A stretch of DNA of 52,547 bases from Minisyncoccia bacterium (GTDB taxonomy: Bacteria > Patescibacteriota > Minisyncoccia > Phycocordibacterales > Zambryskibacteraceae). Location of the stretch: the NCBI GenBank assembly GCA_038212375.1, contig JBBQUO010000001.1, positions 1 through 52,547 of the forward strand. The letters run 5' to 3'. The translations under genes were made by a program, and so were the position numbers. Shown here in pieces: positions 1 through 45,624 of this stretch. Numbering within the stretch: position 1 is the stretch's first letter; the number at the start of each line of letters is the position of its first letter. Under the pieces are notes generated by a model that saw only the letters and a program-made list of their open reading frames with translations, did not search any database and had not been told where the DNA came from.

Positions 1-276
1 AACGGATATGGAAAAAAGACTGATCTCGAAGAATACAAGATTCAAAACCGCGGTGGCTCTGGTATTAAAACTGGAAATGTTACTGCAAAAACTGGAAATG
101 TTATCGCCTCTGCGATTGTCACACCAGCGGAAGAAGAAATCGTAGCTATTTCAAAGAAAGGACAAGTAATTCGTACTTCAATCGAAGAAATTCCAGAACT
201 GGGCCGCCAAACTCAAGGTGTACGCATCATGAAGCTTCGCGAAGGTGACTCACTCGCATCAGTTATTTGTTTCTAA
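1..276 (+). CDS. gyrA: DNA gyrase subunit A, C-terminal fragment (5' end outside window)
   Basis: Frame 1 is open from base 1 to TAA at 274-276. Translation NGYGKKTDLEEYKIQNRGGSGIKTGN...GRQTQGVRIMKLREGDSLASVICF matches the last beta-pinwheel blades of the GyrA CTD. Confidence 0.75.
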   Translation, partial: NGYGKKTDLEEYKIQNRGGSGIKTGNVTAKTGNVIASAIVTPAEEEIVAISKKGQVIRTSIEEIPELGRQTQGVRIMKLREGDSLASVICF

Positions 277-328
277 ATATTGCACCTAGCAACTATGTCT
301 TGAGCGCGCAGTATCGACTCTATTGTTT

Positions 329-356
329 TGTGCACACCATGTCGTATCTGTGCACA
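329..356. promoter_or_regulatory. Two copies of the 8-bp palindrome TGTGCACA, 20 bp apart start to start; candidate operator
   Basis: TGTGCACA at 329-336 and 349-356, in the gyrA/methyltransferase intergenic region. Confidence 0.25.
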
Positions 357-438
357 ATCGCATCTATGCATGATGTATACTATTACCATATATGAGCTGG
401 GTCATGGTTTTTAATCGTCCTACTCTAGAACATCAATC

Positions 439-966
439 ATGTTTAGTGATCCTATTAAAAATGTTGAGCAACTAAGCCTGAGACTTGGATCTGTCGTTCT
501 TGATCTCGGAAGTGGCTCAGGACATTATGCTATTGCATCTGCAAAAGCAGTTGGAGAAAAGGGGGCTGTGTATGCTATTGATATCCAAAAGGATATGCTC
601 ACGAAGCTCAAACGAGAAGCAGGTATCCAGGGCTTCCATAACATTGAAATTGTGTGGGGAGATATCGAAAAGTCAGGCGGAACAAAACTTAAGGATTCGA
701 TCGGTGACTACGCCATTATTTCAAACCTCATGTTTCAGGTAATAGATAAAGATTCTGTTGCAAAAGAAAGTTTTCGAATTTTAAAGTCAGGAGGCAAGCT
801 CCTTGTGGTTGATTGGTCAGACGCTTTTGGGGGTCTTGGTCCCCATGTTGATAGTGTTTTTTCCAAAGATGCAGCAGCAGCTCTCTTTACGAAGACTGGT
901 TTTACAATAGAAAAAGATATACAAGCAGGGAGTCACCACTATGGCATGATTTTTTTGCGACCATAA
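439..966 (+). CDS. Class I SAM-dependent methyltransferase
   Basis: 175-aa ORF with motif I VLDLGSGSGHYA and a typical post-I/II layout (AVYAIDI, GGKLLVVDW). Confidence 0.8.
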   Translation: MFSDPIKNVEQLSLRLGSVVLDLGSGSGHYAIASAKAVGEKGAVYAIDIQKDMLTKLKREAGIQGFHNIEIVWGDIEKSGGTKLKDSIGDYAIISNLMFQVIDKDSVAKESFRILKSGGKLLVVDWSDAFGGLGPHVDSVFSKDAAAALFTKTGFTIEKDIQAGSHHYGMIFLRP

Positions 967-973
967 ACCTATC

Positions 974-2260
974 ATGTCTAAATTTCAATTAATTTTAACG
1001 ATCGTGTTCGGAATCTTCATTGTTATGGGAGTTCTCGTTTTTTCTTTTGTTCGTACGAGTAGTGTTCCGCCTTCGTATGTCACAATTTGGGGTACTATTC
1101 CTCAAGAAATATTTAATGAAGTTCTTTCGCAGTCTCCACTTGGAAAGAGTAAGATTCTTATTCTTACCTATGTCCAAAAAAACTCCGATACATTCGACCA
1201 AGATTTTGTAGAAGCACTTGCATCGGGGACCGGTCCTGATGTAGTACTCCTCCCTCACGAAGAGATTTTGAAAAATCAAAGTAAACTCTTTACGATTCCT
1301 TATACTTCATATCCTGAACGCACATTCAAAGATAATTTTATTCAAGAAGGAGAACTTTTCTTGAGTTCAAAAGGGGTGCTAGCGCTTCCACTTACAGTTG
1401 ATCCATTGGTTATGTATTGGAATCGGGATATATTCAACAATGCCAATTTACCGACACCTCCTACTTATTGGGATGAGTTTTATGGACTTGCACAAAAGCT
1501 TACTACCAAAGACGGTGCTCTCAACATTACCCGCTCTGCAGTGGCACTTGGAGGGTGGAGAAATGTGACAAATGCTAAGGCACTGGTTTCAACACTGCTT
1601 CTTCAGGCAGGAGATCCTATTGTGAAAAACAATGGAACAAAGAACGACGTTGTCCTTGGTGATAGTGTGCAAAACCTTCCAATTTCACCAGCAGTCGCTG
1701 CTCTCACATTTTATACAGAATTTTCAAACCCAGCAAAACCTTTTTATTCTTGGAACCCCGCACTTCCAGAATCACAAAATATGTTTATTTCAGGAGATCT
1801 CGCAACATACTTTGGATTTGCATCTGAGATTAGCTCTCTGAAACTTAAAAACCCGAATCTAAACTTTGATGTTACCCAAATGCCGCAATCTCGAAATAGT
1901 GGAGATAAAATTACGTTTGGAGAGCTACAAGCATTTGCGATCGTAAAAACTTCAAAGACAATCGGTGGATCTTTTGGTGCCATAACATCCCTCACATCAC
2001 CTGACAACGTCGCACTCTTTGCGAGAGCTCTTCATTTGCCACCTGCAAGTCGACTTCTTCTAGCAAGTGTCCCAAAAGACCCATACCTTACGATTTTTTA
2101 TCAGAGCAGTTTGTGGTCTATGGGATGGTTTGATCCTAACGCGCCATACACCGAACGATCACTCCAGATCATGATAGAGAACATAACAGGAGGTAAGGCT
2201 CGTCTCGAAGTAGCAATTAGTAAAGCTCGTGACGAAATAAAGGCAATGCTCAACAACTAA
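974..2260 (+). CDS. Membrane-anchored extracellular solute-binding protein-like (SBP family 1-like); no ABC partners nearby
   Basis: 428 aa with an N-terminal TM helix. SBP_bac_1-like segments PDVVLLPHEEI, DPLVMYWNRDIFNNANL and TYWDEF. The stop is 1 nt before the next ATG. Confidence 0.6.
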   Translation: MSKFQLILTIVFGIFIVMGVLVFSFVRTSSVPPSYVTIWGTIPQEIFNEVLSQSPLGKSKILILTYVQKNSDTFDQDFVEALASGTGPDVVLLPHEEILKNQSKLFTIPYTSYPERTFKDNFIQEGELFLSSKGVLALPLTVDPLVMYWNRDIFNNANLPTPPTYWDEFYGLAQKLTTKDGALNITRSAVALGGWRNVTNAKALVSTLLLQAGDPIVKNNGTKNDVVLGDSVQNLPISPAVAALTFYTEFSNPAKPFYSWNPALPESQNMFISGDLATYFGFASEISSLKLKNPNLNFDVTQMPQSRNSGDKITFGELQAFAIVKTSKTIGGSFGAITSLTSPDNVALFARALHLPPASRLLLASVPKDPYLTIFYQSSLWSMGWFDPNAPYTERSLQIMIENITGGKARLEVAISKARDEIKAMLNN

Positions 2261-2261
2261 C

Positions 2262-2675
2262 ATGAAATTCTTTCAATTCATCACCGTTTCGATTGTCGCC
2301 GCCGCGCTTTTTCTCAGTCCATCTTATATTGTGCACTCGGCAGATTCATCTCTGGTATTTTGCAATCAATCTGTAGACCAGAATGGAAAGTTTGTTGGAA
2401 AAGAATGCGGATGGCCTGAGCTTATTCAGCTCCTAAGCCATATTATCAATTACATTACACTCCTTTCGATACCACTCGCGGCGATTGCCTTCTCTATAGC
2501 TGGATTCAAAGTTATGAGCGCAGGAGGAAGTATGAAAGGAAGAGATGAGGCAAAGAAAATTTTTGAAAATGTCGTAACAGGTCTTTTCTTTATTTTAGCT
2601 GCGTGGCTCATCGTAAACACTATTCTTGTTGCTCTCGTAAAAACAGGAGAAGGGTACTCTATTCTTGGAAATTGA
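2262..2675 (+). CDS. VirB2/TrbC-like 'T4SS pilin' family mini-protein, paralogue 1
   Basis: Signal peptide, then two hydrophobic helices separated by the charged loop SAGGSMKGRDEAKK. Same layout as the six downstream ORFs. Confidence 0.6.
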   Translation: MKFFQFITVSIVAAALFLSPSYIVHSADSSLVFCNQSVDQNGKFVGKECGWPELIQLLSHIINYITLLSIPLAAIAFSIAGFKVMSAGGSMKGRDEAKKIFENVVTGLFFILAAWLIVNTILVALVKTGEGYSILGN

Positions 2676-2694
2676 TAATGATATACTTATTCAT

Positions 2695-3126
2695 ATGAAT
2701 CTAAAACGCTTCGGGATCAATGTGCTGGTTCTCACGGTATTACTTACTCCTTTCCTTTCGTTTGCACAGATAGATTTCCCTGGGCAGGGTAATCCAGTGG
2801 AAGTCACTACACCCGCGTCGTCCCCATCTCCCTCTTCGCAAAGCACATTTCCTAATCCACTTAAGGTTGATACGATTTCACAGCTTATAAGCTTGGTCCT
2901 CAATTCTATTGTTCTTCCAATAGGAGGTATGGTTGCGGTCGGATATATCATTTATGCTGGATTTATTCTCGTTACCGCTCAGGGTAATCCAAAGCAAATT
3001 GAGGAAGGGAAAAAAGCGTTTTATAATGCTTGTATTGGAACCGCAATTCTTCTCGGTGCTGTAGCGATTGCTGACGTTGTTAAAAATACGATTTGTAGTC
3101 TTAGTACCACAATATGCACAGGCTAA
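2695..3126 (+). CDS. VirB2/TrbC-like mini-protein, paralogue 2
   Basis: ATG at 2695 gives signal peptide MNLKRFGINVLVLTVLLTPFLSFAQ, then a P/S-rich linker, helix, loop TAQGNPKQIEEGKK and a second helix. Confidence 0.6.
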   Translation: MNLKRFGINVLVLTVLLTPFLSFAQIDFPGQGNPVEVTTPASSPSPSSQSTFPNPLKVDTISQLISLVLNSIVLPIGGMVAVGYIIYAGFILVTAQGNPKQIEEGKKAFYNACIGTAILLGAVAIADVVKNTICSLSTTICTG

Positions 3127-3512
3127 AGCTATATTATTCGGCTACGAGTATCGCTGCTATAATAGGAGTATTAGCTACTCCGCTTGTTTCATTTGCATTT
3201 TCTTGTCCTGTAAACGCGGTAGTGCCCCCGACCAACTTTACTGACGTAGTCTGTTTTGTCGATAGCCTCATAAACAGCATCCTTCCGCTTATAGTCGGAG
3301 CGAGTCTCCTTGTTTTCTTTGCTGGACTCATCAAGCTTATTCGCGGATCTGGTGATCCAAAGAATATCGCAGCAGGAAAGCAACTCATGATATGGGGCAT
3401 TGTCGCACTTTTTGTAATGTTCTCATTTATTGGGATCCTCAACTTATTCGTTGGAGATTTTTTTGGTAAGACGGTAGGTGTACCGCAATTTCCAGAAACA
3501 TCAACACCATAA
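3114..3512 (+). CDS. VirB2/TrbC-like mini-protein, paralogue 3
   Basis: Signal peptide, helix, loop RGSGDPKNIAAGKQLMIWG, second helix. Overlaps the previous gene by 13 nt. Confidence 0.6.
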   Translation: MHRLKLYYSATSIAAIIGVLATPLVSFAFSCPVNAVVPPTNFTDVVCFVDSLINSILPLIVGASLLVFFAGLIKLIRGSGDPKNIAAGKQLMIWGIVALFVMFSFIGILNLFVGDFFGKTVGVPQFPETSTP

Positions 3513-3522
3513 TTACTATTGT

Positions 3523-3810
3523 ATGATTACAAGTTTTCAAGACCTTATACAAGCCGCTGGGAGTCTACTGAACCTCATCCTTCCTATTACGGTCGCCCTC
3601 GCACTGCTCTATTTTTTGTGGGGACTTACGACATTTATCCAAAAGTCTGGAGATGAAAAAGCTCATGCGGAAGGCAGGAGTAAGATGGTGTGGGGAGTTA
3701 TCGCACTGTTTGTTATGTTTTCTGTGTGGGGCCTTGTGGCATTCTTACAAAACGAGCTTATCGGAGGTTCAGGGACATCAACAAGTTTTCCAATTATTAA
3801 TAATAATTAA
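3523..3810 (+). CDS. VirB2/TrbC-like mini-protein, paralogue 4 (no signal peptide)
   Basis: ATG at 3523 (MITSFQDLIQAAG...). Core LPITVALALLYFLWGL..KSGDEKAHAEGRSKMVWGVIALFVMFSVWGLV. Confidence 0.55.
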   Translation: MITSFQDLIQAAGSLLNLILPITVALALLYFLWGLTTFIQKSGDEKAHAEGRSKMVWGVIALFVMFSVWGLVAFLQNELIGGSGTSTSFPIINNN

Positions 3811-3814
3811 TGGT

Positions 3815-4300
3815 ATGAAAAAAGTATTACTCAGTATCGCTTTTATATCCCTCCCATTGTCTACCTTTGCAGCGGGAGCAGTGCTCTCAGGGACAGAAGA
3901 TTTCATCAAAAGAATTAGTAGTCTTATCGCGCTTCTCTTGCCAATAGTTGTAGCTCTCGCACTGCTCTATTTCTTTTGGGGGCTTGCACAGTTTGTGCTC
4001 GTCTCAGGAGACGATAAATCCATTGCCCAAGGCAAGAATAAAATGATTTGGGGCGTCATAACACTCTTTGTAATGATTTCTGTTTGGGGACTCGTTGGTT
4101 TATTGCAAAGTGAGCTCGGTATTAGAGCCAATCAATCAGCCCCGACCATTCCCACACTTCCTGGGTTTGGAAGCTCAGCTTCTACTGGGACAAATGGATC
4201 TGGAGCGAGTGGAAATCCTAGCGGGTCTGGTGATACCCCTATTTGTCCACCGTGCAGTAATTTCCCAGATCCAGCTTGCCCAGGGCTCGAGGTGTGCTAG
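3815..4300 (+). CDS. VirB2/TrbC-like mini-protein, paralogue 5, with G/S/P- and Cys-rich C-terminal tail
   Basis: ATG at 3815 (MKKVLLSIAFISLPLSTFAAG). Core LLPIVVALALLYFFWGLAQFVLVSGDDK..GKNKMIWG. The tail ends PICPPCSNFPDPACPGLEVC. The track ORF starting at 3653 is an out-of-context upstream extension. Confidence 0.6.
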   Translation: MKKVLLSIAFISLPLSTFAAGAVLSGTEDFIKRISSLIALLLPIVVALALLYFFWGLAQFVLVSGDDKSIAQGKNKMIWGVITLFVMISVWGLVGLLQSELGIRANQSAPTIPTLPGFGSSASTGTNGSGASGNPSGSGDTPICPPCSNFPDPACPGLEVC

Positions 4301-4414
4301 TACTTTTCCCCCGCAACCCATTGTCTTTCGTGCCCCCTCTGATATTATGAAAGGTATCCTTTATGGAAGAAAGAAGGTCATTTATAACGATTTACTAAAT
4401 TAATATATAACACA

Positions 4415-4777
4415 ATGAAGAAATTTTTAGGTGCAGTTACAGCGTTTGCCCTCCCAATGCTTGCATTTGCACAGAGCGGTCCTCAGCTTGGTAACATAGA
4501 AACTTTCATCAAATCTATCAGTCGTCTTATCAATCTTCTCTTGCCGATTGTAGTTGCAATCGCACTGTTGTACTTCTTCTGGGGACTTGCGCAATTTATC
4601 CTCAATTCTGGAGATGACAAAGCACAAGCTGTTGGAAAGAATCGTATGATATGGGGAATTGTTACACTCTTTGTTATGGTGTCAGTGTGGGGTCTTGTAG
4701 GTTTTGTCGGCAGTGCTCTCGGTATTCAGCAAGGAGCAAACTCTGGAAACGTTCCGACAGTTCAAGGAGTTAACTAG
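4415..4777 (+). CDS. VirB2/TrbC-like mini-protein, paralogue 6
   Basis: Signal peptide MKKFLGAVTAFALPMLAFAQ. The core matches paralogue 5 at 49 of 63 residues by manual alignment. Confidence 0.65.
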   Translation: MKKFLGAVTAFALPMLAFAQSGPQLGNIETFIKSISRLINLLLPIVVAIALLYFFWGLAQFILNSGDDKAQAVGKNRMIWGIVTLFVMVSVWGLVGFVGSALGIQQGANSGNVPTVQGVN

Positions 4778-4790
4778 TTTTATTGAGACC

Positions 4791-5084
4791 GTGTCAATTT
4801 CAGGATTTCTCGCTGCGATAGCAAGAGTTATTCTCAATCCTTTGATTGTCCTTGGATTTGTTGTAGCTATCTTGTATTTCTTTTTAGGAATATATAAGTT
4901 CATGACAAAAGCAGGAGACGAAAAGTCTAGACAAGAAGGGAAGAATGGAATTCTTTGGGGTCTGGTCGGGATGTTTATTATGGTAGGAGTGTTTAGTATC
5001 ATTAATGTCATTCTTCACACATTCGGCATTGATCAGACTCAAAGTGTAAGCTCAAATGATTACCTCAATCACTTATTGAAGTAA
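4791..5084 (+). CDS. VirB2/TrbC-like mini-protein, paralogue 7 (start uncertain; GTG at 4791 proposed)
   Basis: The track ORF (4704-5084) overlaps paralogue 6 by 74 nt, and its only ATG is at 4704. An in-frame GTG at 4791 follows the upstream stop. Core ILYFFLGIYKFMTKAGDEKSRQEGKNGILWGLVGMFIM. Confidence 0.45.
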   Translation: MSISGFLAAIARVILNPLIVLGFVVAILYFFLGIYKFMTKAGDEKSRQEGKNGILWGLVGMFIMVGVFSIINVILHTFGIDQTQSVSSNDYLNHLLK

Positions 5085-5097
5085 GTCGTTCACAAAC

Positions 5098-5128
5098 AAA
5101 AAACTCACTCCAATCGAGTGAGTTTTTT
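5098..5128 (+). terminator. Rho-independent terminator closing the mini-protein array
   Basis: aaaaaactcactc / caatc / gagtgagtttttt: a 13-bp stem whose 3' arm ends in a T-run. Confidence 0.75.
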
Positions 5129-5172
5129 GTTGTCCATATGTTCTATCTGGTACAGATCTGTATACTATATCT

Positions 5173-6159
5173 ATGAGTAGACTAACCAAAGGAGCAGGAG
5201 AAACTGATACCGTGTTTATTGCGGCGATCGTTATCTTGCTTATTCTGTCTTGGATCCATCTTGGTGCCACAAGGAGTACTCGCGGGGTTTCAAACCTCAG
5301 TCCGTTTTCAGTTGCAACACCAAGTTCTTCATCTCGTTCCACGCAGCCGTATAATAGTGGAAGCAACAGCACTTTAGATGGCACTAAGTCGCCATGGTAT
5401 GGACTCGTCACGATTGACCTTGGGAGTGCTCCGAGCGAATATGAGCCGTACCAAGAATATATTATTCTCCACGCGAGCGGTGACCTTCAAAAATCTATCA
5501 ATGTATCTGGCTGGCAACTATCCAATGCAAAAGGTGCAAAGGTTTACCAAGTCGGAAGTAATGTCACCCGTTTTCAGTCTGACGTAGCGACCATTCCACT
5601 CGCTGTGCCGCTCTATATCCCAGGAAAGGGAAGTATTGCGAGTCCTGTTATACTCGCGCCAAATGGGCAGGTCATTGTAATTTCCGGTTCCAACACAACT
5701 GCAGGAGGCGTCCTTCCAAGTTTTCGAGAAAACAAATGCACAGCCTATCTCACTCATGATAAAAAAAATCCAGTGACTATTTATCCGAGCGTATACAGCT
5801 ATTGTCCTGCACCGTACAAAGAAGCAGGTGTTTCGGGTCTTGATAATGCATGTAATACGTTTGTTTCGAACCTGAATTCCTGCAGTACTCCAGACTTTGT
5901 AAATAGTGTAAGGACCAATGGGTATCTTGAACCTGGCTATGTCGATACGGTCGGCGGACTTTCTCAGAGCTGTAAAACATATATTCAAAACCACTATAGT
6001 TACAATGGGTGCGTCGCAAGCCATAGTGGTGATAGTGATTTCTACGGCTCAACCTGGCATGTGTACTTGGGTCGCAAATGGGAAATGTGGGCAACTGAAA
6101 GAGAAACGGTTACCCTCCTCGATGCAGATGGAAAAATTGTGAATACGTACTCGTATTAG
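5173..6159 (+). CDS. Membrane-anchored protein with lamin-tail-domain (LTD)-like fold and Cys-rich C-terminal region
   Basis: N-terminal TM helix and S-rich linker. LTD-like segment YGLVTIDLG..YQEYIILHASG..INVSGWQLSNAKG..VILAPNGQVIVISG. The C-terminal half contains 7 Cys. Confidence 0.5.
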   Translation: MSRLTKGAGETDTVFIAAIVILLILSWIHLGATRSTRGVSNLSPFSVATPSSSSRSTQPYNSGSNSTLDGTKSPWYGLVTIDLGSAPSEYEPYQEYIILHASGDLQKSINVSGWQLSNAKGAKVYQVGSNVTRFQSDVATIPLAVPLYIPGKGSIASPVILAPNGQVIVISGSNTTAGGVLPSFRENKCTAYLTHDKKNPVTIYPSVYSYCPAPYKEAGVSGLDNACNTFVSNLNSCSTPDFVNSVRTNGYLEPGYVDTVGGLSQSCKTYIQNHYSYNGCVASHSGDSDFYGSTWHVYLGRKWEMWATERETVTLLDADGKIVNTYSY

Positions 6160-6232
6160 TAGGAAAAAATAGAATCAATCTACTCTGATTAAGTGAAGAA
6201 CAGAATGCGACGTATTCTGAAATATAAAAAAA

Positions 6233-6259
6233 GGGCGAAGCGCATACAGCGCTTCGCCC
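6233..6259. terminator. Bidirectional terminator between convergent genes
   Basis: gggcgaagcgc / ataca / gcgcttcgccc, with an A-run before it. Confidence 0.7.
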
Positions 6260-6277
6260 TCGGTTGTCTCGTCGGTA

Positions 6278-7924
6278 TCAGTGATGATTGAATCGTGTCA
6301 CGGTCATCCGAACGAAATCAGGAGAAAAAGAACGGAATCGGAGAGTTTTTGGTCCAGTCGTAAACTTTCCGTTTACCTTCGGTACCCACTCTCCGTTTTC
6401 GAGTGTGTGACTCATGACTGAGTCACCATGCTCGTTGTAGACGGTGTACCGGATATCCTTTTCCGGTTTTGACCGTGTACGTTGGCTAAATGTGGGTACT
6501 GGTTCAGACAGCGAGCTGTCTCTGGGTAAGTCTACGACGATTATCTCGTCTCTCCCTTCCACGAAAGCTGCAACTTGCTCCGGTGTCCTTTCGTTCGGCC
6601 AACCAGGAGGAATGGTTTTGTATCCCATCTCCCAACAATACCTTGACGAACCCCAGTCATTGAATCTTCGATTATTGTACAACTTGCGAGCAATGCGAGC
6701 ATTGCCTTCCGCTGTTTCGATATTCTCGCCACTTTCCGCAATCATGTCACGATGAATCGTGTCGTTGATCTGAAAGAGGCCGACATCGTACTGATTTTGC
6801 TGACCACGAAGTGCAACTGTCGGATTGGTATCCGAGAATTGCTTTCCTCTTGATTCGCAATAGGCGATAGACTTCATGACCGCTACGACACTGTCGCCTT
6901 GGTCATGAAAGGTGCTATCAATCAGCTTTGAGTACTCTTCGGGGAGCAGATCGGCCTTGTTACTTTTCTCGAACGGATTGCTCGATCCAACGTATGTTAC
7001 CTTTGGAACTTGAGCGATTCGCTCTGAACTACTCGGAGCTTTTTCAGCCCAGAGACTGCTCACCGATTCACGGATGTGATCCGGTAAAAAGTAAGGAACC
7101 ACTCCAAAGAGAAACATAGCTCCTGTACTGACAGCGACAAGCTTATGAACAAGCTTGTGGCCACCGGCGGTTTTCCCGAAGGAATATCCGCCGACGATAA
7201 TGATAATCGTCAGAAAGAGACAGGGAACACTCGTCAGGTACGAGTAGATATTCCTCAATCGTTCTCCATACGGGACAAGTACCCAAATGAGGCCGACAAC
7301 AGCGAGATGAAATAATCCCGCAACCAGCAGACCTTTTCCGAATGTTTTGAGCCCGTCACCGCTTGTTCCTCCAACAGGATTTCCCCATTTTTTGAATGCC
7401 CAGATTATTCCCGCTATTGCTGGAATTCCAACAATAACGAGAGCGATAATCCAAAGCGTTGCTGATGAAGAAAACCATGAAGGAAGCGATGGAGATGAAA
7501 ATGTAGCTTGGGAGATAAACCCAACGAGTCGTATAACTCCATACACGATCGCAATTGCAACTGCAATAAAGATCGCTGATCCAATGCCAATTAGAGGCGT
7601 TGTTTTAATCTTCTTCCACATACCGCGTGACCTCCGTTTTGTTTGAAGATACAGAAAGAATATTCGCTTTCGCAAAAATACTTTCTTGTTGTACCACGAT
7701 GTGAATTGACGAAAATATTTCGCCGTAAACTCTGAGATGTGTTTCCGTGCAGAACGGATATTTTGGAAAATCCAAAGCAATATCCGCGAAACTTTCTGCC
7801 ACACAAAACCAAATGCTTTGCTAGTCGAGCTCGCGACACGACGAGGAATATCCGACATATTGTCGATACTCCACATGGTCATAAGTCGAATATTGAGCAG
7901 AAAGCTCTTCCACCAGTCTTTCAC
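6278..7924 (-). CDS. Polytopic membrane protein with lysozyme-like / lytic transglycosylase (VirB1/SLT-like) domain
   Basis: 548 aa with about 5-6 TM helices in residues ~105-290. Then MKSIAYCESRGKQF...YDVGLFQINDTIH, an E-S catalytic motif plus GLFQIN as in family-1 lytic transglycosylases. The start codon is uncertain. Confidence 0.55.
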   Translation of the reverse strand: MKDWWKSFLLNIRLMTMWSIDNMSDIPRRVASSTSKAFGFVWQKVSRILLWIFQNIRSARKHISEFTAKYFRQFTSWYNKKVFLRKRIFFLYLQTKRRSRGMWKKIKTTPLIGIGSAIFIAVAIAIVYGVIRLVGFISQATFSSPSLPSWFSSSATLWIIALVIVGIPAIAGIIWAFKKWGNPVGGTSGDGLKTFGKGLLVAGLFHLAVVGLIWVLVPYGERLRNIYSYLTSVPCLFLTIIIIVGGYSFGKTAGGHKLVHKLVAVSTGAMFLFGVVPYFLPDHIRESVSSLWAEKAPSSSERIAQVPKVTYVGSSNPFEKSNKADLLPEEYSKLIDSTFHDQGDSVVAVMKSIAYCESRGKQFSDTNPTVALRGQQNQYDVGLFQINDTIHRDMIAESGENIETAEGNARIARKLYNNRRFNDWGSSRYCWEMGYKTIPPGWPNERTPEQVAAFVEGRDEIIVVDLPRDSSLSEPVPTFSQRTRSKPEKDIRYTVYNEHGDSVMSHTLENGEWVPKVNGKFTTGPKTLRFRSFSPDFVRMTVTRFNHH

Positions 7925-8005
7925 AACCTCTCCTTTGTTAAAGTTTCAATGACCAGATTCTGGGCGTATTATAGCACATATAATACACATTTGTCAATAA
8001 AAAAA

Positions 8006-8035
8006 GGGGGCTCATTGACTTAGCAATGAGCCCCC
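8006..8035 (-). terminator. Rho-independent terminator for the SPFH gene
   Basis: gggggctcattg / acttag / caatgagccccc. A T6 run follows on the minus strand. Confidence 0.8.
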
Positions 8036-8058
8036 TTAGGGTCTACTATGACCAATTT

Positions 8059-9228
8059 TTATGCATCCTTCTGTGCAGGTTGGGGAATGATAATCCCCAG
8101 TCCGCCACTATTACCAGGAGCAAATGTGGTGACGGTTTTGTTGTTCTCATAGGCCTCGGCAGCCCGGATTGCTGCCGCTCCTGGCTCCCTTGCAATTGCC
8201 AGAGTTACTCGCTGAACGCGATCAGCAGAAACGTCGTTCTCAAGTGTACCGCGTGTTTTGTTCGCTTCTGCAAGAAGACGAATTGATTCCGCGATACCTT
8301 CCGCTTCGGTGATGGCAGCCTGCTTGCTCGCGGTAGCGACCTTAAGTCGTGCAGCTTGTTCGAGTTCAGTTTTCTTGGCGAGCTCGAGAAGTGCTCGGAG
8401 ACCCACTTCTTTCTTGTCAGGGTCTATCGAGAACAATGTTACTGATGTGATACAGAGACCGAGTTGTTCCTCTGCGGCAGTAGAGATATCTTTTACTTCT
8501 TTAACCAATTCAGCTTTCGCTTCTTTGGTTCCACTGAGGTAGTAATCGGGATCATGTGTGCCAGTAAGTGCGATTGTTTTCGCCTCTGACATTTCTGACA
8601 GAGTGGCGTTGCTATCTGCTACTCGCAGAATCGCCCTTACTGGGTAGATTCGTTCCCAAATGATGTTGTACTTTATGTCGAGAGCAAACGCGCCCTTGGT
8701 TTCAGCAGCATTTACTTCGACTGCCTGCTGACCTGAAAAGAAAACATACTCCGACTGAATTACTTGTGGGAATACATGATATCCTTCCTGATCTGCTACT
8801 TTCTGTTTTGATTTCCTTTTTTCTTTTCCGTCTTTTTCCTCAAGCTCCCCCGTGTCATCTGACTTCTTACTTTCAAGTCCGAAGCGAAATGACTTATCGA
8901 TGTTGAGACGAAGGTCACGGAAAGGACCTTTCCAATGTACTCCGTAAAGGAAATGGAGAAGACCACGGTTTTCTTTTCCATCCTCAAATTTCCAATCGTA
9001 GAAATTGTGGCTTTTTTTATTTAGCACCTTTCCTGGTACTTCGTGCTCAACATCCACAATACCACCACCACCTTTGTCGATGTCGGTTGACACGTTTTCT
9101 TTACTTACCAAGATGGCATACATGCCACCTGGTATGAAGAACCACCATGATGCGTTCCGCACTACGATCCCTACGATTGCCCAAAGGACAACAAGGGTAA
9201 TAGGCACGCCGAGCAAGTACCATAACAT
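8059..9228 (-). CDS. SPFH/band-7 (flotillin/prohibitin-like) domain membrane protein
   Basis: The start at 9228 is preceded by AGGAG at a 7-nt spacing. N-terminal TM helix. C-terminal A/E-rich coiled coil (LELAKKTELEQAARLKVATASKQAAITEAEGIAESIRLLAEA) typical of SPFH proteins, with a lysine/glutamate-rich insert. Confidence 0.5.
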   Translation of the reverse strand: MLWYLLGVPITLVVLWAIVGIVVRNASWWFFIPGGMYAILVSKENVSTDIDKGGGGIVDVEHEVPGKVLNKKSHNFYDWKFEDGKENRGLLHFLYGVHWKGPFRDLRLNIDKSFRFGLESKKSDDTGELEEKDGKEKRKSKQKVADQEGYHVFPQVIQSEYVFFSGQQAVEVNAAETKGAFALDIKYNIIWERIYPVRAILRVADSNATLSEMSEAKTIALTGTHDPDYYLSGTKEAKAELVKEVKDISTAAEEQLGLCITSVTLFSIDPDKKEVGLRALLELAKKTELEQAARLKVATASKQAAITEAEGIAESIRLLAEANKTRGTLENDVSADRVQRVTLAIAREPGAAAIRAAEAYENNKTVTTFAPGNSGGLGIIIPQPAQKDA

Positions 9229-9354
9229 AAGGTAACTCCTGTTTTTTAGAAGGATGACAAAGAAACAGTTCTGGGGCAATATTAGCACGTAAATATAGAA
9301 AAGTCAAGTTATAAGCTAGTTCAAAAAAGGGAAGTGTGATAGAGTATTTCTCAT

Positions 9355-9436
9355 GCCGAGGTGGCGGAATTGGTATACGCGCTAGTCTTAGGAACTAGTT
9401 CCGTAAGGATTAGGAGTTCGAGTCTCCTCCTCGGCA
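9355..9436 (+). tRNA. tRNA-Leu (anticodon TAG)
   Basis: Manual cloverleaf: GCCGAGG/CCTCGGC acceptor, CTAGT-CTTAGGA-ACTAG anticodon arm, 13-nt variable arm, AGGAG-TTCGAGT-CTCCT T-arm. CCA is not encoded. Confidence 0.9.
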
Positions 9437-9440
9437 CAAG

Positions 9441-9466
9441 AAAACTGGCTTAGGCCAGTTTTTTGT
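9441..9466 (+). terminator. Terminator after tRNA-Leu(TAG)
   Basis: aaaactggc / ttag / gccagtttt, followed by ttgtt. Confidence 0.7.
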
Positions 9467-9471
9467 TGCAT

Positions 9472-9860
9472 CGAGGAGGAGGCTCGAAGGGCGTAGGTAT
9501 ATCGCAGATAGTAATCTGCGATACCGAGCTGGGGTCGCGGAAATTTTCGAACGACGGCGAGAAAATTATCTGTGAACGAGACTCGTTAGATGCGCGAGGA
9601 GACTCGAAGACCTTGAATATATCGCACGGAACGGAGTGAGTACGATATGAAAGGTGTACAGAGTCTGTAAGTCTCGAGTCTCCAGACTCGAGACATCACA
9701 ACAGAAAAGGCCAAGAGTGAAAGCTCTTGGCCTTTTCTGTTGTGGTTGAGTGGGAGACTTGAAAGGCGCAGGTAATATCGCATATGGTAATGTGCGACGT
9801 CGAGCCAAGGTAGCAAAAATATGTGAGCGACGGCAAATATATTATTCGTGATCGAGTCTC
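9472..9860 (-). repeat. Three degenerate tRNA-sized repeat units (minus sense), each ending in a tRNA-Leu-like T-arm/acceptor segment
   Basis: Units at about 9472-9584, 9591-9649 and 9752-9860 align by eye. Shared blocks are GGAGaCTCGAAg, TATCGCA-hairpin-TGCGA and CGACGGC..ATTAT..GTGA.CGAGaCTC. 9472-9488 is the reverse complement of tRNA-Leu positions TTCGAGTCTCCTCCTCG with one change. Confidence 0.7.
9697..9744. other. 21-bp perfect hairpin (bidirectional terminator-like)
   Basis: cacaacagaaaaggccaagag / tgaaag / ctcttggccttttctgttgtg. Confidence 0.7.
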
Positions 9861-9866
9861 ATTACG

Positions 9867-9895
9867 TTGACAATTTAATATAATATCAGTATTGT
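9867..9895 (+). promoter_or_regulatory. Candidate sigma70-type promoter for the coiled-coil gene
   Basis: TTGACA (9867-9872), 17-nt spacer, TATTGT (9890-9895), about 45 nt upstream of the ATG at 9939. Confidence 0.35.
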
Positions 9896-9938
9896 AATTT
9901 TTGGCAGTTCATTCCATACCTTAAGTCCAGAGGAAATT

Positions 9939-10373
9939 ATGGCACCAGCTAAAAAGGGTACCCCCAAGCAAAGGAAGCTGCGATTTACAAAACTAAACTT
10001 TGACAGACTCGTCTACGAAGTAGAAGAACTGAAAGATGTTTTGAGTGACTTCCGATCTCACGGGATACATTCGCTAGGAGACATCATTGATTTAAAGGCC
10101 AAACTTACAAAGCTTCATGGTGATAAAGAAACTCAGTGGGAAGCTTGTAAAGCCGCTGAAGGTTTCCTAAAATTACAAATTACTGAGTTGAACATGGCTT
10201 TGGTTGATCGCCAGCAAAATGTGGATGCTCTCACTCGTGATTTGCATGACGCAGATTTGATTTTGTCTAGTTTGCGAAAGGAGCTCAACTCATCATTGGC
10301 TGAAGCTCAACAGTTGAGAGATCAACTCAATCAATCGAAGATAGCTATCGTAAGAATTTCAAGTCTTATATAA
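9939..10373 (+). CDS. Hypothetical coiled-coil protein with basic N-terminus
   Basis: 144 aa. N-terminus APAKKGTPKQRKLRF, followed by heptad-like L/E/K/Q-rich sequence. Has its own promoter candidate and terminator. Confidence 0.55.
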   Translation: MAPAKKGTPKQRKLRFTKLNFDRLVYEVEELKDVLSDFRSHGIHSLGDIIDLKAKLTKLHGDKETQWEACKAAEGFLKLQITELNMALVDRQQNVDALTRDLHDADLILSSLRKELNSSLAEAQQLRDQLNQSKIAIVRISSLI

Positions 10374-31327: not shown

Positions 31328-32770
31328 ATGAAATTCTCTGATTTTCTAAAAAAAATTGAAGGGTATAGAGGGGTATGCACGCTTGAAAAGCTTATGAAGC
31401 ATCGCACAAGGGTGTGGATGAAAAAAGTATTTTTCTTTCTTACGCTCCTGTTATTTGCATTTAGTACACTCTCCCCACAAGGTGTACCAGTGAAGCTTAC
31501 AGGATTCTTTTTCCTTTTACTTGTTATTACTACAGTACTTTCTGCTCTTGATGCTTTCTACTATTCATATGCTCGCACTACTCAAGATGCTGAGCCTTAT
31601 CTACTTGATTTAGCAAGTATTATCTCTGTAACAAACGAAAAAGACATAATCGGCGGATTCATTCGTTCTGATATTGGTATGCAAATACTAATTCGTGCAG
31701 GTTTACAGAAAGAAACAATCTCAAAATACCTTCATTCACGAACAAGTTTTGTCACTGCACAAACATTTTCTGGAGTTAAATCTAATGCCGTATTCTCGTC
31801 GTATTTACTCGGAATATATGGATGCGATAAAGGTTTTGAGCACTTGCTGCTTGCTCATGGCATTGATGCATCGCTCTTTATTGGTTCCGCACTTTGGGTT
31901 ATACATAGCAACACTTCTCTTCGTGAAAAAAGAAGGTGGTGGGCGCGAGAAAGACTCCATACCGTTCCATCGCTCAGCAGAGTATGGTCTTTTCGTAATT
32001 CACATTCGCTCATGCGAATGACGACCCCACTCCAGTTTTCTAGATATCAAGGTATAGAGAATCACGGAGAAGCCGTAGAGCGACTTGAAACTATTCTTAC
32101 AAGGTCCAGTCATGCTAATGCCATTTTGATAGGTGATGATGGTGTGGGAAAGATGGAGGTAATAGAAAGTTTGGCGCGTAAAGCATTCAGTCGAAATAGC
32201 ACACCAGAACTTCTCGAGAAAGAATACTTTGTGCTCGATTTTGAGAGACTTGCTGAAGCGTCAATAGACAGGCTTACCTTTGAAACACTTTTTTCGAATA
32301 TGTTAATCGAAGCTTCAAGATCTGGAAATGTATTGTTTGTTATTCCTAATTTTTCAGATCTTTTGCTCTTTGCAGAATCGTTCGGATCGGATCTATCGTC
32401 TCTTATGAATCGCTTTTTAAGCTCAACGACTATTCAATTCGTTGCAATAAGTGACACTGATGAATTTTTTGAGTACCTTCAAGAAGACACTGTGCTTATA
32501 AATCATTTTACCCGTATCAATGTTGTAGAAGAATATTCTACTCTTGCAATTCGCACACTTCATGAAACTGTACACTCCTTTGAGTTACAGAATCCTATTG
32601 TCATTAGCTACCCTTCAATCTACGCTGTGATCAAGAGTGGTAGGGCGATTTCAGAGGATGATTCATTGTTTGATAATACAGAGGAGCTTCTCCGTAGGGT
32701 AATAGGAAAAGTCTTGAACGAAGAAAGAAATATTGTATACGAAGAAGATATTGATGAATTATTTCAGTAA
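31328..32770 (+). CDS. Membrane-anchored ClpA/B-like N-domain + degenerate AAA+ D1-like protein
   Basis: Two N-terminal TM helices and Clp-N-like repeats. The Walker A-like motif is ILIGDDGVGKME, compared with GEPGVGKTA in Clp ATPases. No second AAA module. Confidence 0.45.
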   Translation: MKFSDFLKKIEGYRGVCTLEKLMKHRTRVWMKKVFFFLTLLLFAFSTLSPQGVPVKLTGFFFLLLVITTVLSALDAFYYSYARTTQDAEPYLLDLASIISVTNEKDIIGGFIRSDIGMQILIRAGLQKETISKYLHSRTSFVTAQTFSGVKSNAVFSSYLLGIYGCDKGFEHLLLAHGIDASLFIGSALWVIHSNTSLREKRRWWARERLHTVPSLSRVWSFRNSHSLMRMTTPLQFSRYQGIENHGEAVERLETILTRSSHANAILIGDDGVGKMEVIESLARKAFSRNSTPELLEKEYFVLDFERLAEASIDRLTFETLFSNMLIEASRSGNVLFVIPNFSDLLLFAESFGSDLSSLMNRFLSSTTIQFVAISDTDEFFEYLQEDTVLINHFTRINVVEEYSTLAIRTLHETVHSFELQNPIVISYPSIYAVIKSGRAISEDDSLFDNTEELLRRVIGKVLNEERNIVYEEDIDELFQ

Positions 32771-34690: not shown

Positions 34691-35193
34691 TGTACGTATG
34701 TAGTTAGAGATCCGTTCATACCATCAATTGTAGTGCTTGCTGAAATGCTGTAAACATTTGTAGATCCAATGCTAGATGAATACTGAAAACTTAGATTTGT
34801 GACGCTCACGTTCTGACTTGTCAGGGGAATGTATTCAGCCATCTCTCCGCCTTCACGCATTTCAATGCTACTACTTGCCTCTACGTATCTGATGTCGACT
34901 TGAATCCCGTCACTTCGTTTCAGTGAAAGTATATTAGTATATTGATTCGTTACGTTCGGTGTAATAAGTCGTGCAATGGAGGACGTGCCGCTGAGGGTCC
35001 AGTTAATTTTTTGCATTACAAAATTTATTTCGTCTTGCGCAATAATTTTGCCAGTATTTAGATTTGAGTTTTGAAGTATTGATTGTGATGCAATAAAAAG
35101 TCCAGTCATCAAAATGCTAAAAAGTGCGATATAGACAATAATTTCAATAAGAAAAAATCCAGAATCTTTCTTTTTTGGGAATGTTTTTATCAT
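34687..35193 (-). CDS. Type IV pilin-like minor pilin (prepilin N-terminal motif)
   Basis: MIKTFPKKKDSG/FFLIEIIVYIALFSILM: G at -1, F at +1, E at +5. Confidence 0.7.
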   Translation of the reverse strand: MIKTFPKKKDSGFFLIEIIVYIALFSILMTGLFIASQSILQNSNLNTGKIIAQDEINFVMQKINWTLSGTSSIARLITPNVTNQYTNILSLKRSDGIQVDIRYVEASSSIEMREGGEMAEYIPLTSQNVSVTNLSFQYSSSIGSTNVYSISASTTIDGMNGSLTTYVQ

Positions 35194-36710
35194 GGGTTTG
35201 GAGAAGCAGAAATAATGGAAAGCATGTCTTTCCTGTTCGTGCTTGGAGTAAGAATACCCAAGTACATAAAGTCTCCAGAACAGTATGATGGTCCTCCACT
35301 ACCACCAAGACTTGCAAGAGATAAAAACGTGTTTGTGGTGCTATCTTGTGACCATGGTTTTATTGAGTTGATGTTAGAGACATCCCAAACTTGAAATTGC
35401 GCCTTTGTAATGAAGAATGCCAGGTCGCCCTTCACGGAAATTCCATAAATACTATTTTTGTTATTTGGATTCACTACAACATTGAGGTTTCCGAGAGTTA
35501 GAACGTTTGTGGGATTTGAAATATTAAGTGCATAGAACTCATTGGTACCGTACGTTCTTCCAAAGTACATCGTATTTCCCAAAAGAAACATGCTTTCTCC
35601 ATAGTTTGAACCAACACCATTTAAATCAGGGGGATAAAATGAAGAAGTAAATCCTCCAATCCTTTGCATGAATGTTTTGCTACTGGGCAAGATATCAAGT
35701 ATGGTCATGCTTTCGCTACTCGGTGTTGCTATGTAGGCATAGTTTCCTCGTGTCACAATACTATTTACATCATGTCCGACTTCATACATTCCATTTGAAA
35801 TAAGAATTGGGTTTGTGGAACTTGAAACATCAAAAACAGCAAGTTCAGCTCCAGAAGTATTGGCGGTTAGTCCCAGATAAATCTTGTTGTTGTGGTAGTG
35901 GATCGCATTTCCAAGCCCACTCGAGCCTGTAACTTTTCTAGAAGCTACGATTGTTGGCTTTGTTGGATCAGATATATCAATAACTTGAAGCTGACTTACT
36001 GTACTCTTGGTGGCTACGAAAGCATAGTTTCTTGATATTGCGATCGCACTGACAAGTGCCGCGGTGGTCGTAGCGCCTCGATATACCGGCTTTTGTCCAG
36101 ATGACGTAGGAAGGTCGAAAATATAAATCGTATTTTTATTTGAGCTTGGCACTGCGTCGAGCCCAATATACAACCTCTGATTACTAACCGATAAACCTCC
36201 GATACCGAAACCATTACCATTTCCACCATTTACGCCGAGCTCTCCAAAGTCCCAGGTACTTGCAGTTGGATTTTTCCAACTTTCTTTATCTATGTAGATA
36301 GAATTGCAGCTATCACCATTTAAGTACCCGAGTGGGTTGGTAAGTAAAGTGGAAAGTGAGACGTGAAGGGAGAGACCGTATTCATTCCACGATACAGTAC
36401 TTGTGGCTTGTTTTGTAAATGGATCAATCTGAGTTGCTTCCAGTGATCTTTCGTATGTTCCATCAGTTGTTTTTACAATGGGTTGGACAAGATTGAAATC
36501 AAACGTTGCAAGACCCCGTACTTCTTCTATAGTTTCAAGAGCCATAGAAAGCGCTGAACTGCTCATGCTATTACTTTCTACAATAGATTGGTTGCGAAAC
36601 GTTATCAGGATAATTGCACCGAGGCTTAGCGAGAGGACAGTAAATGCAATAAGTATTTCTATACTTGCCATACCTGACAGCTTTTGATTAGTAGATGATT
36701 GCGCCTTCAT
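35190..36710 (-). CDS. Prepilin-type N-terminus fused to an LVIVD-repeat beta-propeller domain
   Basis: MKAQSSTNQKLSG/MASIEILIAF (G at -1, E at +5). Repeated blocks NYAFVATKS..LQVIDISDPTKPTIV, NKIYLGLTA..LAVFDVSSSTNPILI, GNYAYIATPS..MTILDI and GDLAFFITKAQFQVWDVSNINSIKP. Confidence 0.65.
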   Translation of the reverse strand: MKAQSSTNQKLSGMASIEILIAFTVLSLSLGAIILITFRNQSIVESNSMSSSALSMALETIEEVRGLATFDFNLVQPIVKTTDGTYERSLEATQIDPFTKQATSTVSWNEYGLSLHVSLSTLLTNPLGYLNGDSCNSIYIDKESWKNPTASTWDFGELGVNGGNGNGFGIGGLSVSNQRLYIGLDAVPSSNKNTIYIFDLPTSSGQKPVYRGATTTAALVSAIAISRNYAFVATKSTVSQLQVIDISDPTKPTIVASRKVTGSSGLGNAIHYHNNKIYLGLTANTSGAELAVFDVSSSTNPILISNGMYEVGHDVNSIVTRGNYAYIATPSSESMTILDILPSSKTFMQRIGGFTSSFYPPDLNGVGSNYGESMFLLGNTMYFGRTYGTNEFYALNISNPTNVLTLGNLNVVVNPNNKNSIYGISVKGDLAFFITKAQFQVWDVSNINSIKPWSQDSTTNTFLSLASLGGSGGPSYCSGDFMYLGILTPSTNRKDMLSIISASPNP

Positions 36711-37152
36711 AGTTTACGGTAGTCGTTGAAATGTGACTTTCTTGATGAATAACAATTACTACCGGAGTGCTCGTGCCGCTTAGTTGAGTGAATACAACAC
36801 CAAGGCCATAAATGCAGGAAATTATGTTTGGGCTACTTTCGACCGAAACATGAGAGTTTGCTGAGATTGAGATATTGCTGCTACTCATGGCATCGTAGGT
36901 GTATCCCTCAAATAGTACATAGGAGTGCGATTCTTGCTTGTAACAAACACCATGTCTTGTTTGATGTATGTTGTTTTGTGCTTGGCCGCGTGCTCTCGAA
37001 AGGAGATTTATCAGTGTTGACTGTTCTGATGTGGATACAAAATTTTGCTGAAGCGCAGTGCTATACAGCATCCCCAAACTAAGGAGTATTGTGAGAATAG
37101 TTATCGAAATAATTACTTCGATGAGTGTAAAAGCATCAGTGTGTTTAAGCAT
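36688..37152 (-). CDS. Type IV pilin-like minor pilin
   Basis: Start at 37152: MLKHTDA/FTLIEVIISITILTILL (F at +1, E at +5). Overlaps the end of pilC by 8 nt. Confidence 0.65.
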   Translation of the reverse strand: MLKHTDAFTLIEVIISITILTILLSLGMLYSTALQQNFVSTSEQSTLINLLSRARGQAQNNIHQTRHGVCYKQESHSYVLFEGYTYDAMSSSNISISANSHVSVESSPNIISCIYGLGVVFTQLSGTSTPVVIVIHQESHISTTTVNYEGAIIY

Positions 37153-38254
37153 GAAGATTTTGAGTGATGCTATAAATTGGAGTAATAATAGAAACAGCGA
37201 TAAAACCAACAATAATTCCCATAATTATCATGAGTACAGGCTCCACTAGATTTGAAAGATTTTTTGTCATAGCATCTACTTCCTGTTCAAAAAATTCTGC
37301 AAGATACATACATGAATTTTCAAGATCACCAGTTCGCTCTCCAACAGAAATAATTTGCGACATCACATCAGGAAATAAGTCTGGGTAGAGTGCAATGTGA
37401 CTTGTTATGGTTCCTCCCTGAATGATCCTTTCTATAAGTAGTTCATACTGGTATCTAAATTGATAGTTTTGTGTTGTATTTTTTACCACCACAACTGCTT
37501 CTGAAAGAGACATTGAACTACGCAAGAGTAGTGCGAGAGTTCGCATACTATTTGCAAGAGTGTAATATTTTGTCATTGGTCCAACGATAGGCGTTCTCAA
37601 GATTAATTGATCGACAAAGAATGCAAACTTTGGTAATTTTTTTATCGTAAATGCAATCAATACCGCTATGCCAAAACTTATGAAAATGCATGCGATGCCA
37701 AAGTTACTAATGAAATGAGAAAGTTTCATAACAATACGTGTTGTAAGGGGAATTTTTACATGCAAACTTAAAAAAATCGGCATAATTTTTGGAAACAGAT
37801 ATACTACGAGAAACGATGTAATCCCAAGAGTTGCAACACAGACTACTATAGGATAGATAAATGCACTGATTACTTTGCGCTTCAGCATTTGTTTCTTCTG
37901 TAGTTCATCAGCAAGATAGCTTAAGTTACTACTGAGAATTCCAGTACTTTCTCCAATTTCAATAATATTAATTGCAAAAGAACCAAAAAGATATTCTGCT
38001 TTCTTGAGACTTTTTGAAAGTGATTGACCGTTCGAAACCTGATATGTAGCAATTCCTAGTAGGATTAGGGTCCGTGGATTACGAGTTTGTTCTTTGATAA
38101 TAAGGAGGCTTTCGAGTACAGGGATTCCAGACCTAATAAGAAATGACAAACGTTTTGCCAAAAAAGTTTGCTCTTTGATAGAAAGTTTCGAGCGAAAAAG
38201 AGATTTAAAAAAGTGTTTAAAACGATTAATATAGGTGATTACAATGTTATTCAT
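37145..38254 (-). CDS. pilC: Type IV pilus/T2SS platform protein (GspF/PilC family)
   Basis: 369 aa with two T2SSF repeats and 3 TM segments. Confidence 0.85.
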   Translation of the reverse strand: MNNIVITYINRFKHFFKSLFRSKLSIKEQTFLAKRLSFLIRSGIPVLESLLIIKEQTRNPRTLILLGIATYQVSNGQSLSKSLKKAEYLFGSFAINIIEIGESTGILSSNLSYLADELQKKQMLKRKVISAFIYPIVVCVATLGITSFLVVYLFPKIMPIFLSLHVKIPLTTRIVMKLSHFISNFGIACIFISFGIAVLIAFTIKKLPKFAFFVDQLILRTPIVGPMTKYYTLANSMRTLALLLRSSMSLSEAVVVVKNTTQNYQFRYQYELLIERIIQGGTITSHIALYPDLFPDVMSQIISVGERTGDLENSCMYLAEFFEQEVDAMTKNLSNLVEPVLMIIMGIIVGFIAVSIITPIYSITQNLHA

Positions 38255-45022: not shown

Positions 45023-45087
45023 TTTTTGCAAATTTCTGAAAAATGCGAGAGTTTAATGTGGGTTGAACTTTTCACACAGGAGGAAAC

Positions 45088-45531: not shown

Positions 45532-45563
45532 CAAAAACAGGCGCAACGAAGTTGCGCCTGTTT
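45517..45563 (+). repeat. Direct repeat copy A (includes the stop of the upstream ORF and a 13-bp terminator hairpin)
   Basis: 45526-45563 is identical to 46237-46274 (38 nt). The 9 nt upstream differ at 2 positions. Hairpin aaacaggcgcaac/gaa/gttgcgcctgttt. Confidence 0.9.
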
Positions 45564-45609
45564 TTCATTCAACCAAAATTAATTGCTCCTCCTGCTTTGT
45601 TTGTTTGTG

Positions 45610-45618
45610 TGATACAAT
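45610..45618 (+). promoter_or_regulatory. Extended -10 element (TGATACAAT), 6 nt upstream of the pilin ATG
   Basis: TGnTACAAT at 45610-45618. There is no purine-rich SD between it and the ATG at 45625, so a leaderless transcript is plausible. Confidence 0.35.
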
Positions 45619-45624
45619 TTTTAT

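Follow-up and report, generated by a model that had tools for sequence, protein, structure and literature searches.

Near one end of the DNA analysed here, a window of 52,547 nt (positions 1 to 52,547 of contig JBBQUO010000001.1 from the Minisyncoccia bacterium assembly GCA_038212375.1), seven adjacent genes (p1-p7) occupy positions 2262-5084 on the forward strand and encode helix-loop-helix membrane proteins of 95-161 aa (Table 1). A preliminary description, made from the sequence alone, had read this segment as seven tandem paralogues of 97-161 aa, and seven forward-strand open reading frames (ORFs), all of them members of the pilin family PF18895, are indeed what we find. The gene starts were refined by comparison with orthologues: the upper limit of 161 aa stands, and the lower limit drops to the 95 aa of p4, whose start is fixed by orthologues beginning with MISxxQDL. 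The orthologues of p7 measure 69-97 aa and begin with MSIxxFL. No eighth copy was found when a profile of the seven proteins was searched against 610 six-frame ORFs of the window.

Table 1. Coordinates of the pilin-like genes and of the features around them in the window (T1-T6, pilin types as assigned from related loci)
Feature	Coordinates	Strand	Description	Profile match
MalE-like solute-binding protein (SBP)	974..2260	+	428 aa	SBP_bac_1 69.8 bits; SBP_bac_8 60 bits
p1 (T1)	2262..2675	+	137 aa; signal peptide, Cys..Cys N-terminal segment, hairpin	PF18895 36 bits
p2 (T2)	2695..3126	+	143 aa; signal peptide, Pro/Ser-rich linker, hairpin	PF18895 38 bits
p3 (T3)	3114..3512	+	132 aa; signal peptide, conserved Cys pair, hairpin	PF18895 27.5 bits
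p4 (T4)	3523..3810	+	95 aa; without signal peptide in this genome	PF18895 39.8 bits
p5 (extra T4/T5-class copy)	3815..4300	+	161 aa	PF18895 40.2 bits
Promoter-like site	4321..4348	+	TTGTCT-16-TATTAT with upstream TG; within the 114-nt spacer before p6	
p6 (T5)	4415..4777	+	120 aa; best-conserved type	PF18895 43.4 bits
p7 (T6)	4791..5084	+	97 aa; GTG start; without signal peptide	PF18895 29.4 bits
Hairpin terminator	5095..5131	+	A-run and T-run flanks; -21.2 kcal/mol, z = -7.1; equalled by 0 of 200 shuffles	
Lamin-tail-domain protein	5173-6159		membrane-anchored	LTD 32.2 bits (cutoff 34.3)
Lysozyme-like protein	6278..7924	-	polytopic membrane protein with C-terminal lysozyme-like (SLT_3) domain	PF18896 26.4 bits, just under cutoff 27
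SPFH/Band_7 membrane protein	8059..9288	-	conserved convergent neighbour	Band_7 23.2 bits (cutoff 23.6)

Since all seven proteins exceed the gathering score of PF18895 (T4SS_pilin, named for type IV secretion systems, T4SS; 26.6 bits), reaching 27.5-43.4 bits with E-values of 3e-6 to 4e-11, the match is not a chance one. The threshold of the TrbC family (PF04956, 27.9 bits) is not reached: p2, the most TrbC-like of the seven, comes closest (23.1 bits, E 9e-5), p1 scores 14.4 bits and the others do not match. Six of the seven also match the NCBIfam model NF045849 (Mbov_0395 pilin-like conjugal transfer protein) over nearly its whole length, at 21-34 bits and E-values of 2e-4 to 2e-8 (p2, 30.5 bits; p7, 34.1 bits), under its cutoff of 40 bits; they are related to that family and are not filed as its members. 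With tblastn, p2 gave the sole plasmid match, a pilin-like conjugal transfer gene on a megaplasmid of the Firmicute Pontibacillus, 4 kb upstream of genes for a VirB4-like ATPase and a large peptidoglycan endopeptidase. The top profile match in the PDB, the pKM101 pilin TraM, is weak (E 0.12). The family is very common: 54,542 cluster representatives are matched, at E up to 0.001, by the profile built from p1-p7. In Patescibacteria, the term “VirB2 array” is used for two or more PF18895 or PF04956 genes in tandem or with a single gene between them, and seven lie side by side here. The sequences closest to p6 and to its neighbouring genes carry the names Parcubacteria, Minisyncoccia, Zambryskibacteria and Paceibacteria, and Zambryskibacteria appear under the class Paceibacteria in Table S1 of Quinonero-Coronel et al. 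(2025; PMC12102498). Judged by these profiles and names, p1-p7 are VirB2/TrbC-like pilin-family proteins of a Patescibacterium of the class Paceibacteria.

In all seven proteins, hydropathy shows two hydrophobic segments long enough to span the membrane, with a short loop rich in Lys between them, and a heuristic reading of the sequences recognizes a signal-peptide-like N-terminus ending in x-F/S-A in five of them, with none in p4 and p7. The AlphaFold2 model of p6 consists of a signal helix (residues 2-20) and two further helices (25-63 and 68-101) with a predicted local distance difference test (pLDDT) score of 80.6, and the helix-loop-helix hairpin appears in both models computed, one of the full protein and one of the mature part (pLDDT 80.6 and 84.3). 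Pairwise identity among p1-p7 is 19-61%, and apart from the start Met the alignment has just two invariant residues, a Gly and a Lys in the loop. The preliminary description had ascribed a common core motif with LYFFWGL to every copy; this holds exactly for p3-p7, whereas the motif is degenerate in p1 (AFSIAGF) and p2 (YIIYAGF). Its statement that the N-terminal regions and C-terminal tails differ strongly between paralogues is borne out by the alignment.

Besides, some individual architectures deserve mention. At its C-terminus, p5 has a tail of about 55 aa, rich in Gly and Ser and with four Cys at its very end (PICPPCSNFPDPACPGLEVC), which is missing in the orthologous copies examined. At the third pilin position, relatives may bear a long N-terminal extension that is predicted to be extracellular (L025:6754-8787, 678 aa; L008:8563-9504, 313 aa). 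In some relatives, one long protein combines a single signal peptide with 6-8 tandem pilin-like hairpin modules. One of them, P0243 (L093:76-1743), was verified as an uninterrupted ORF of 555 aa and is followed downstream by three ordinary single pilin genes; P0245, P0241, P0246, P0255 and P0256 are further fused multi-module proteins.

Small size, two transmembrane helices and a lysozyme-like gene nearby are also what a lysis cassette made of holin-like proteins and a lysozyme-like protein would present, an outcome that had been named beforehand as one that profile searches might give. These searches returned a known pilin family, PF18895, and no holin family at E up to 0.1. Moreover, signal peptides in five of the seven do not suit holins, the lysozyme-like protein is itself anchored in the membrane by five segments, and the locus lies on the chromosome between housekeeping genes, in synteny across about 80 species and with no phage genes around it. 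We rejected this extremely improbable reading on the grounds of the profile assignment and the conserved chromosomal context.

To place the array among its relatives, we compared seven syntenic loci obtained by exact-protein look-ups and 80 species-representative loci found with an alignment of T5 orthologues, about 85 Paceibacteria in all. In each of six other genomes, the best match of each window paralogue is the gene at the same position, and for T1, T2, T3, T6 and p6 this positional match scores well above any paralogue in the window. The positional matches of p1 in six loci reach 28-46% identity, compared with 35% to its best in-window paralogue; p2 has position-2 orthologues in all six loci, the position-3 orthologues of p3 are 38-62% identical, and the orthologues of p6 (55-74% identity), which occupy the penultimate position, group cleanly in one clade. 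With type-specific profiles, the order SBP, T1, T2, T3, (T4/T5)n, T6 on one strand is recovered in nearly every locus of about 80 species representatives. Six copies are the modal number (46 of 69 loci), seven occur in 12 loci and the range is 4-9, with all changes confined to the T4/T5 class, to which p4 belongs, and brought about by lineage-specific duplications. T6, which never has a signal peptide, is the last gene of the array; the exceptions are L007/L027 and L032, which have one more T5 copy behind it, and L077, whose gene order is scrambled. Six old pilin types, which are not interchangeable and keep a fixed order, make up the array, and its paralogues predate the species splits.

The window itself deviates from the modal set by p5, which clusters with in-window copies and not with a cross-species orthologue and which, judged by this clustering, is one extra copy of the T4/T5 class. 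Its nearest relative is p6, with 61% identity over 117 aa and 53 of 66 identical core residues, close to the 49 of 63 counted by hand in the preliminary description. That count had been taken as a sign of recent duplication. With synonymous sites near saturation (pS 0.63, dS ~1.4) and a maximum of 11 consecutive identical nucleotides, the duplication is an old and not a recent one, and no conversion tracts were seen in this closest pair.

These data bear on the proposal that the paralogues are variants of a single exposed subunit, exchangeable for one another and diversified to evade recognition or match different hosts, as has been proposed for the VirB2 families of Bartonella and Anaplasma. 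Such a cassette was among the options raised in the preliminary description, and Quinonero-Coronel et al. (2025) suggest the same reading for Patescibacteria. It draws on the strongly different terminal segments and on the copy number, which varies between species from 4 to 9 through the duplications in the T4/T5 class. In contrast, every type is represented by an orthologue in the same position across about 80 species, the paralogues arose before the species split, and p5 and p6, the closest pair, are synonymous-saturated without an identical run above 11 nt and thus without a conversion tract. Pairwise dN/dS values of 0.16-0.37 among the paralogues also speak against it, with the caveat that they are unreliable since synonymous sites are saturated. 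Compared with the same genomes, T5 is 53-74% identical and thereby as conserved as the translation factor IF-2 (51-74%), with a conserved exposed C-terminal tail, while the values are 39-57% for the SBP, 28-62% for T1-T4 and 29-35% for the lysozyme-like neighbour. No strain-level variants were found, the closest relative being 73-77% identical; an exact-sequence query with p6 gave no gene record, while the identical protein from this contig is in the protein database. In Candidatus Southlakia epibionticum, where six tandem PF18895 pilins (SEML1_0014-0019) lie inside a T4SS cluster, each of the six is essential, and hence they are not redundant (Wang et al., 2023; PMC10633639). On this sequence comparison the pilins are not hypervariable, and we consider a variation cassette very unlikely. 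Among the three options of the preliminary description, it is the multi-subunit fibre that the positional orthologues and the slow evolution of T5 favour, whereas antigenic or host-range variation is disfavoured by the age of the paralogues, by the lack of observed conversion tracts and by a copy number that varies only at T4/T5.

A second characteristic of the locus is its link to the SBP, the first gene of the operon. This protein carries one N-terminal transmembrane segment (residues 6-24), which points to a membrane anchor, and its stop codon lies 1 nt before the ATG of p1. In 71 of the 73 related loci that reach far enough upstream, an SBP gene adjoins T1 on the same strand with a median gap of 2 nt, and two loci that had been selected via the SBP and not via a pilin also have the array. 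By this spacing, the SBP is translationally coupled to the first pilin gene. In the syntenic loci examined, there is no gene for an ABC permease or ATPase near the SBP, which makes it an orphan.

Within the array, the T1-T2, T2-T3, T3-T4 and T5-T6 junctions have median gaps of 1-19 nt, and the junction before the conserved T5 one of 82-104 nt. This spacer (4301-4414 in the window, about 100 nt) was aligned across 11 loci (the window, L001, L003, L005, L007-L010, L013, L015 and L020), and a conserved TTG.. element and a (TG)nTAT(A/T)AT element coincide with the promoter-like site of Table 1. These -35-like and extended -10-like elements characterize the spacer as promoter-like, with a putative internal promoter for T5-T6. 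A generic scan for promoters and terminators remained at background level overall; it missed the terminator behind p7 because the A-run pairs with the T-run, and folding revealed the hairpin. An Rfam scan of positions 1-10000 returned nothing but a tRNA.

Downstream, the lysozyme-like gene converges on the array. Its product has five transmembrane segments at residues 118-276, and the CES, GLFQI and YN motifs are readable in its sequence. In 37 loci a homologue starts at most about 290 nt from the end of the array, the lysozyme-like domain being the conserved part, and this is the fastest-evolving gene of the block. By these motifs, it is a candidate VirB1-like cell-wall hydrolase. An SPFH/Band_7 homologue follows 0.5-3.1 kb past the array in about 54 loci. 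Only in the window, L003 and L070 is the array separated from the lysozyme-like gene by a lamin-tail-domain gene, and the copy in L007 is 3 kb away.

Taken together, we favour, with moderate confidence, a heteromeric multi-subunit surface structure of six specialised VirB2-like subunits that would be built by a T4SS whose genes lie in another part of the genome. Starting from the observed family membership and the conserved six-type operon, the topology, assembly, filament and function could be pictured as follows. Each protein would enter the membrane as a helical hairpin whose two ends face outwards and whose Lys-rich loop faces inwards, five of them by way of a cleaved signal peptide, which T6, and T4 in this genome, would do without. 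A T4SS machine with VirB4, VirB6 and other components encoded elsewhere would then assemble them into the heteromeric surface structure, for which the lysozyme-like protein may open the cell wall. T5 (p6), separately promoted together with T6, would be the abundant structural subunit and is our candidate for the major one, and the other types may act as minor or specialised subunits that expose their variable ends. The structure might serve contact or exchange with a host cell, by analogy with what has been proposed for the six-pilin array of Southlakia.

The dependence of this heteromeric surface structure on a T4SS is deduced indirectly, because neither the scanned ORFs of at least 120 aa on the 52.5-kb contig nor the stretches up to 10 kb from the array in any of about 80 related loci contain a VirB4, VirB6 or VirD4 domain. 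It rests on the family context elsewhere and on the VirB4 table of Quinonero-Coronel et al. (2025), which lists VirB4 in most Zambryskibacteria genomes, including the one behind L031, while the genome behind L015, a draft assembly with the array, is listed without it. Several other points weigh against our explanation as well: i) tight coupling to an SBP is not known from any T4SS pilus operon, ii) fused six-module single chains are hard to square with the polymerisation of monomers unless they are processed, iii) Foldseek searches of the PDB with both AlphaFold2 models returned generic helical hairpins only, all at E >0.3, and no pilin among them, the fold being too simple for Foldseek to discriminate, and iv) none of the published accounts of PF18895 pilins consulted shows a pilus built of this family. 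The exposed filament subunit of the preliminary description therefore fits the T4SS_pilin assignment as far as the subunit is concerned, whereas the filament is undemonstrated for the family in these accounts.

The same observations could be accommodated by a hetero-oligomer of fixed stoichiometry that stays in the membrane as a pore, a platform or a ring of about six hairpins instead of forming a filament, and that works with the SBP, for example in uptake from the host. The orphan SBP coupled to T1 in nearly all loci, the array in both SBP-selected loci, the lack of a VirB4 gene within 10 kb in any locus, six distinct types as the modal set, the individual essentiality of the six Southlakia pilins (Wang et al., 2023) and the genuine single ORFs with one signal peptide and six hairpin modules would all suit such an oligomer. 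They are set against the detectable kinship to TrbC/VirB2 and to conjugal pilin-like proteins in VirB4 clusters, the position of the Saccharimonadia array inside a T4SS cluster and the adjoining lysozyme-like wall-opening enzyme, which suits an envelope-spanning structure. In addition, the wider gene order is also conserved, so that the SBP linkage could partly reflect inherited synteny. We consider a membrane oligomer unlikely. A more specific form, in which the six types make up one fixed hetero-oligomer, sometimes as a fused six-module chain, and act with the co-translated orphan sugar-binding-type protein in conducting or sensing material derived from the host, is a distinctly unlikely proposal; if true, it would represent a new use of the VirB2 fold and not an ordinary homopolymeric pilus.

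These considerations matter since Patescibacteria make up a large, mostly uncultured share of bacterial diversity and appear to live attached to other cells. Few envelope systems have been shown to be indispensable for this attached lifestyle, and pilin-like arrays, in one cultured species, are among them. Six old types whose order is fixed speak for a machine of several subunits and against a variation cassette, a separately promoted and highly conserved type is a candidate for its major subunit, and the strict coupling to an orphan binding protein together with the lysozyme-like protein names concrete partners.

The window spans the whole contig and is chromosomal, with genes for IF-2, ClpB, TopA, DprA, SerRS, RelA and ParB, seven tRNAs and type IV pilus genes. 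The latter form a second pilus system, unrelated to the array, at 35190-39455 (reverse strand) and 44609-46182 (forward strand), with a PilB-like ATPase (T2SSE), a PilC-like protein (T2SSF), an LVIVD-repeat protein and at least one protein with an N-terminal methylation motif (45625-46182). At 47222-50906, genes for a UbiA prenyltransferase, an amine-oxidase/phytoene-desaturase-like flavoprotein and a squalene/phytoene synthase stand side by side and resemble isoprenoid or carotenoid genes, which are unexpected in a metabolically reduced Patescibacterium. Two large ORFs, at 31328-32770 (480 aa) and 39559-40815 (418 aa), have no Pfam match.

Arrays of this kind have been published, and the one in the window is a member from a Paceibacteria lineage, not a new kind of system. 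One of the closest counterparts is that of Southlakia epibionticum ML1, likewise a Patescibacterium with tandem same-strand PF18895 genes (103-185 aa), whose six copies equal the modal count found here. The two arrays differ in context: in Southlakia, the pilin genes lie beside VirB6-, VirB4- and PrgI-like genes, and the available cluster rows SEML1_0005-0021 include no SBP gene, whereas the window array starts with one and lies apart from any VirB4 gene. Southlakia belongs to the Saccharimonadia and the window to the Paceibacteria; the six types are likened here by their number.

On a broader scale, profiles of PF18895, PF04956 and CONJScan, applied to 3,035 Patescibacteria genomes, yielded 441 “VirB2 arrays” of 2-11 genes in 383 assemblies (Quinonero-Coronel et al., 2025). 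The tandem pilin genes of that study are similarly low in identity (mean 25% there, 19-61% here), and the maximum is 54% in comparison to 61% for p5/p6. A solute-binding protein is mentioned neither in its main text nor in the available supplementary text, and the fixed type order and the internal promoter were not found in the parts available. More generally, the available published accounts of the arrays contain neither the fixed order of six types and the SBP coupling nor the internal promoter and the lysozyme-like neighbour. A 2025 review describes the pilins as structurally conserved and divergent in sequence, with a pilus only as a possibility (PMC12857230).

The VirB2 pilin of Agrobacterium, TrbC of RP4, TraM of pKM101 and TraA of F share with the window proteins a leader peptide, two hydrophobic helices, a short basic loop and small size. 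The similarity in sequence is weak, as the scores for TrbC and TraM given above illustrate, and Foldseek yielded no fold match; furthermore, these pilins are normally encoded by one gene in a diderm transfer operon, in contrast to seven genes in a monoderm-type lineage and away from VirB4. The Mbov_0395 family of Mycoplasma integrative and conjugative elements and of Firmicutes resembles six of the seven paralogues over nearly the whole model, and the member matched by p2 belongs to a VirB4-containing cluster. In this case, all scores stay under the cutoff, and the Pontibacillus member is a single annotated copy in a conjugation-type cluster.

Finally, Bartonella and Anaplasma possess several tandem, divergent VirB2-like genes, as cited in Quinonero-Coronel et al. 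(2025), who suggest, by analogy, versatility towards host strains for the Patescibacteria arrays. The genes of Bartonella and Anaplasma are interpreted as antigenic or host-interaction variants. The types in the window are old and conserved in position and show no sign of conversion. In contrast to the host-range versatility favoured by Quinonero-Coronel et al. (2025), our data favour fixed, specialised subunits.

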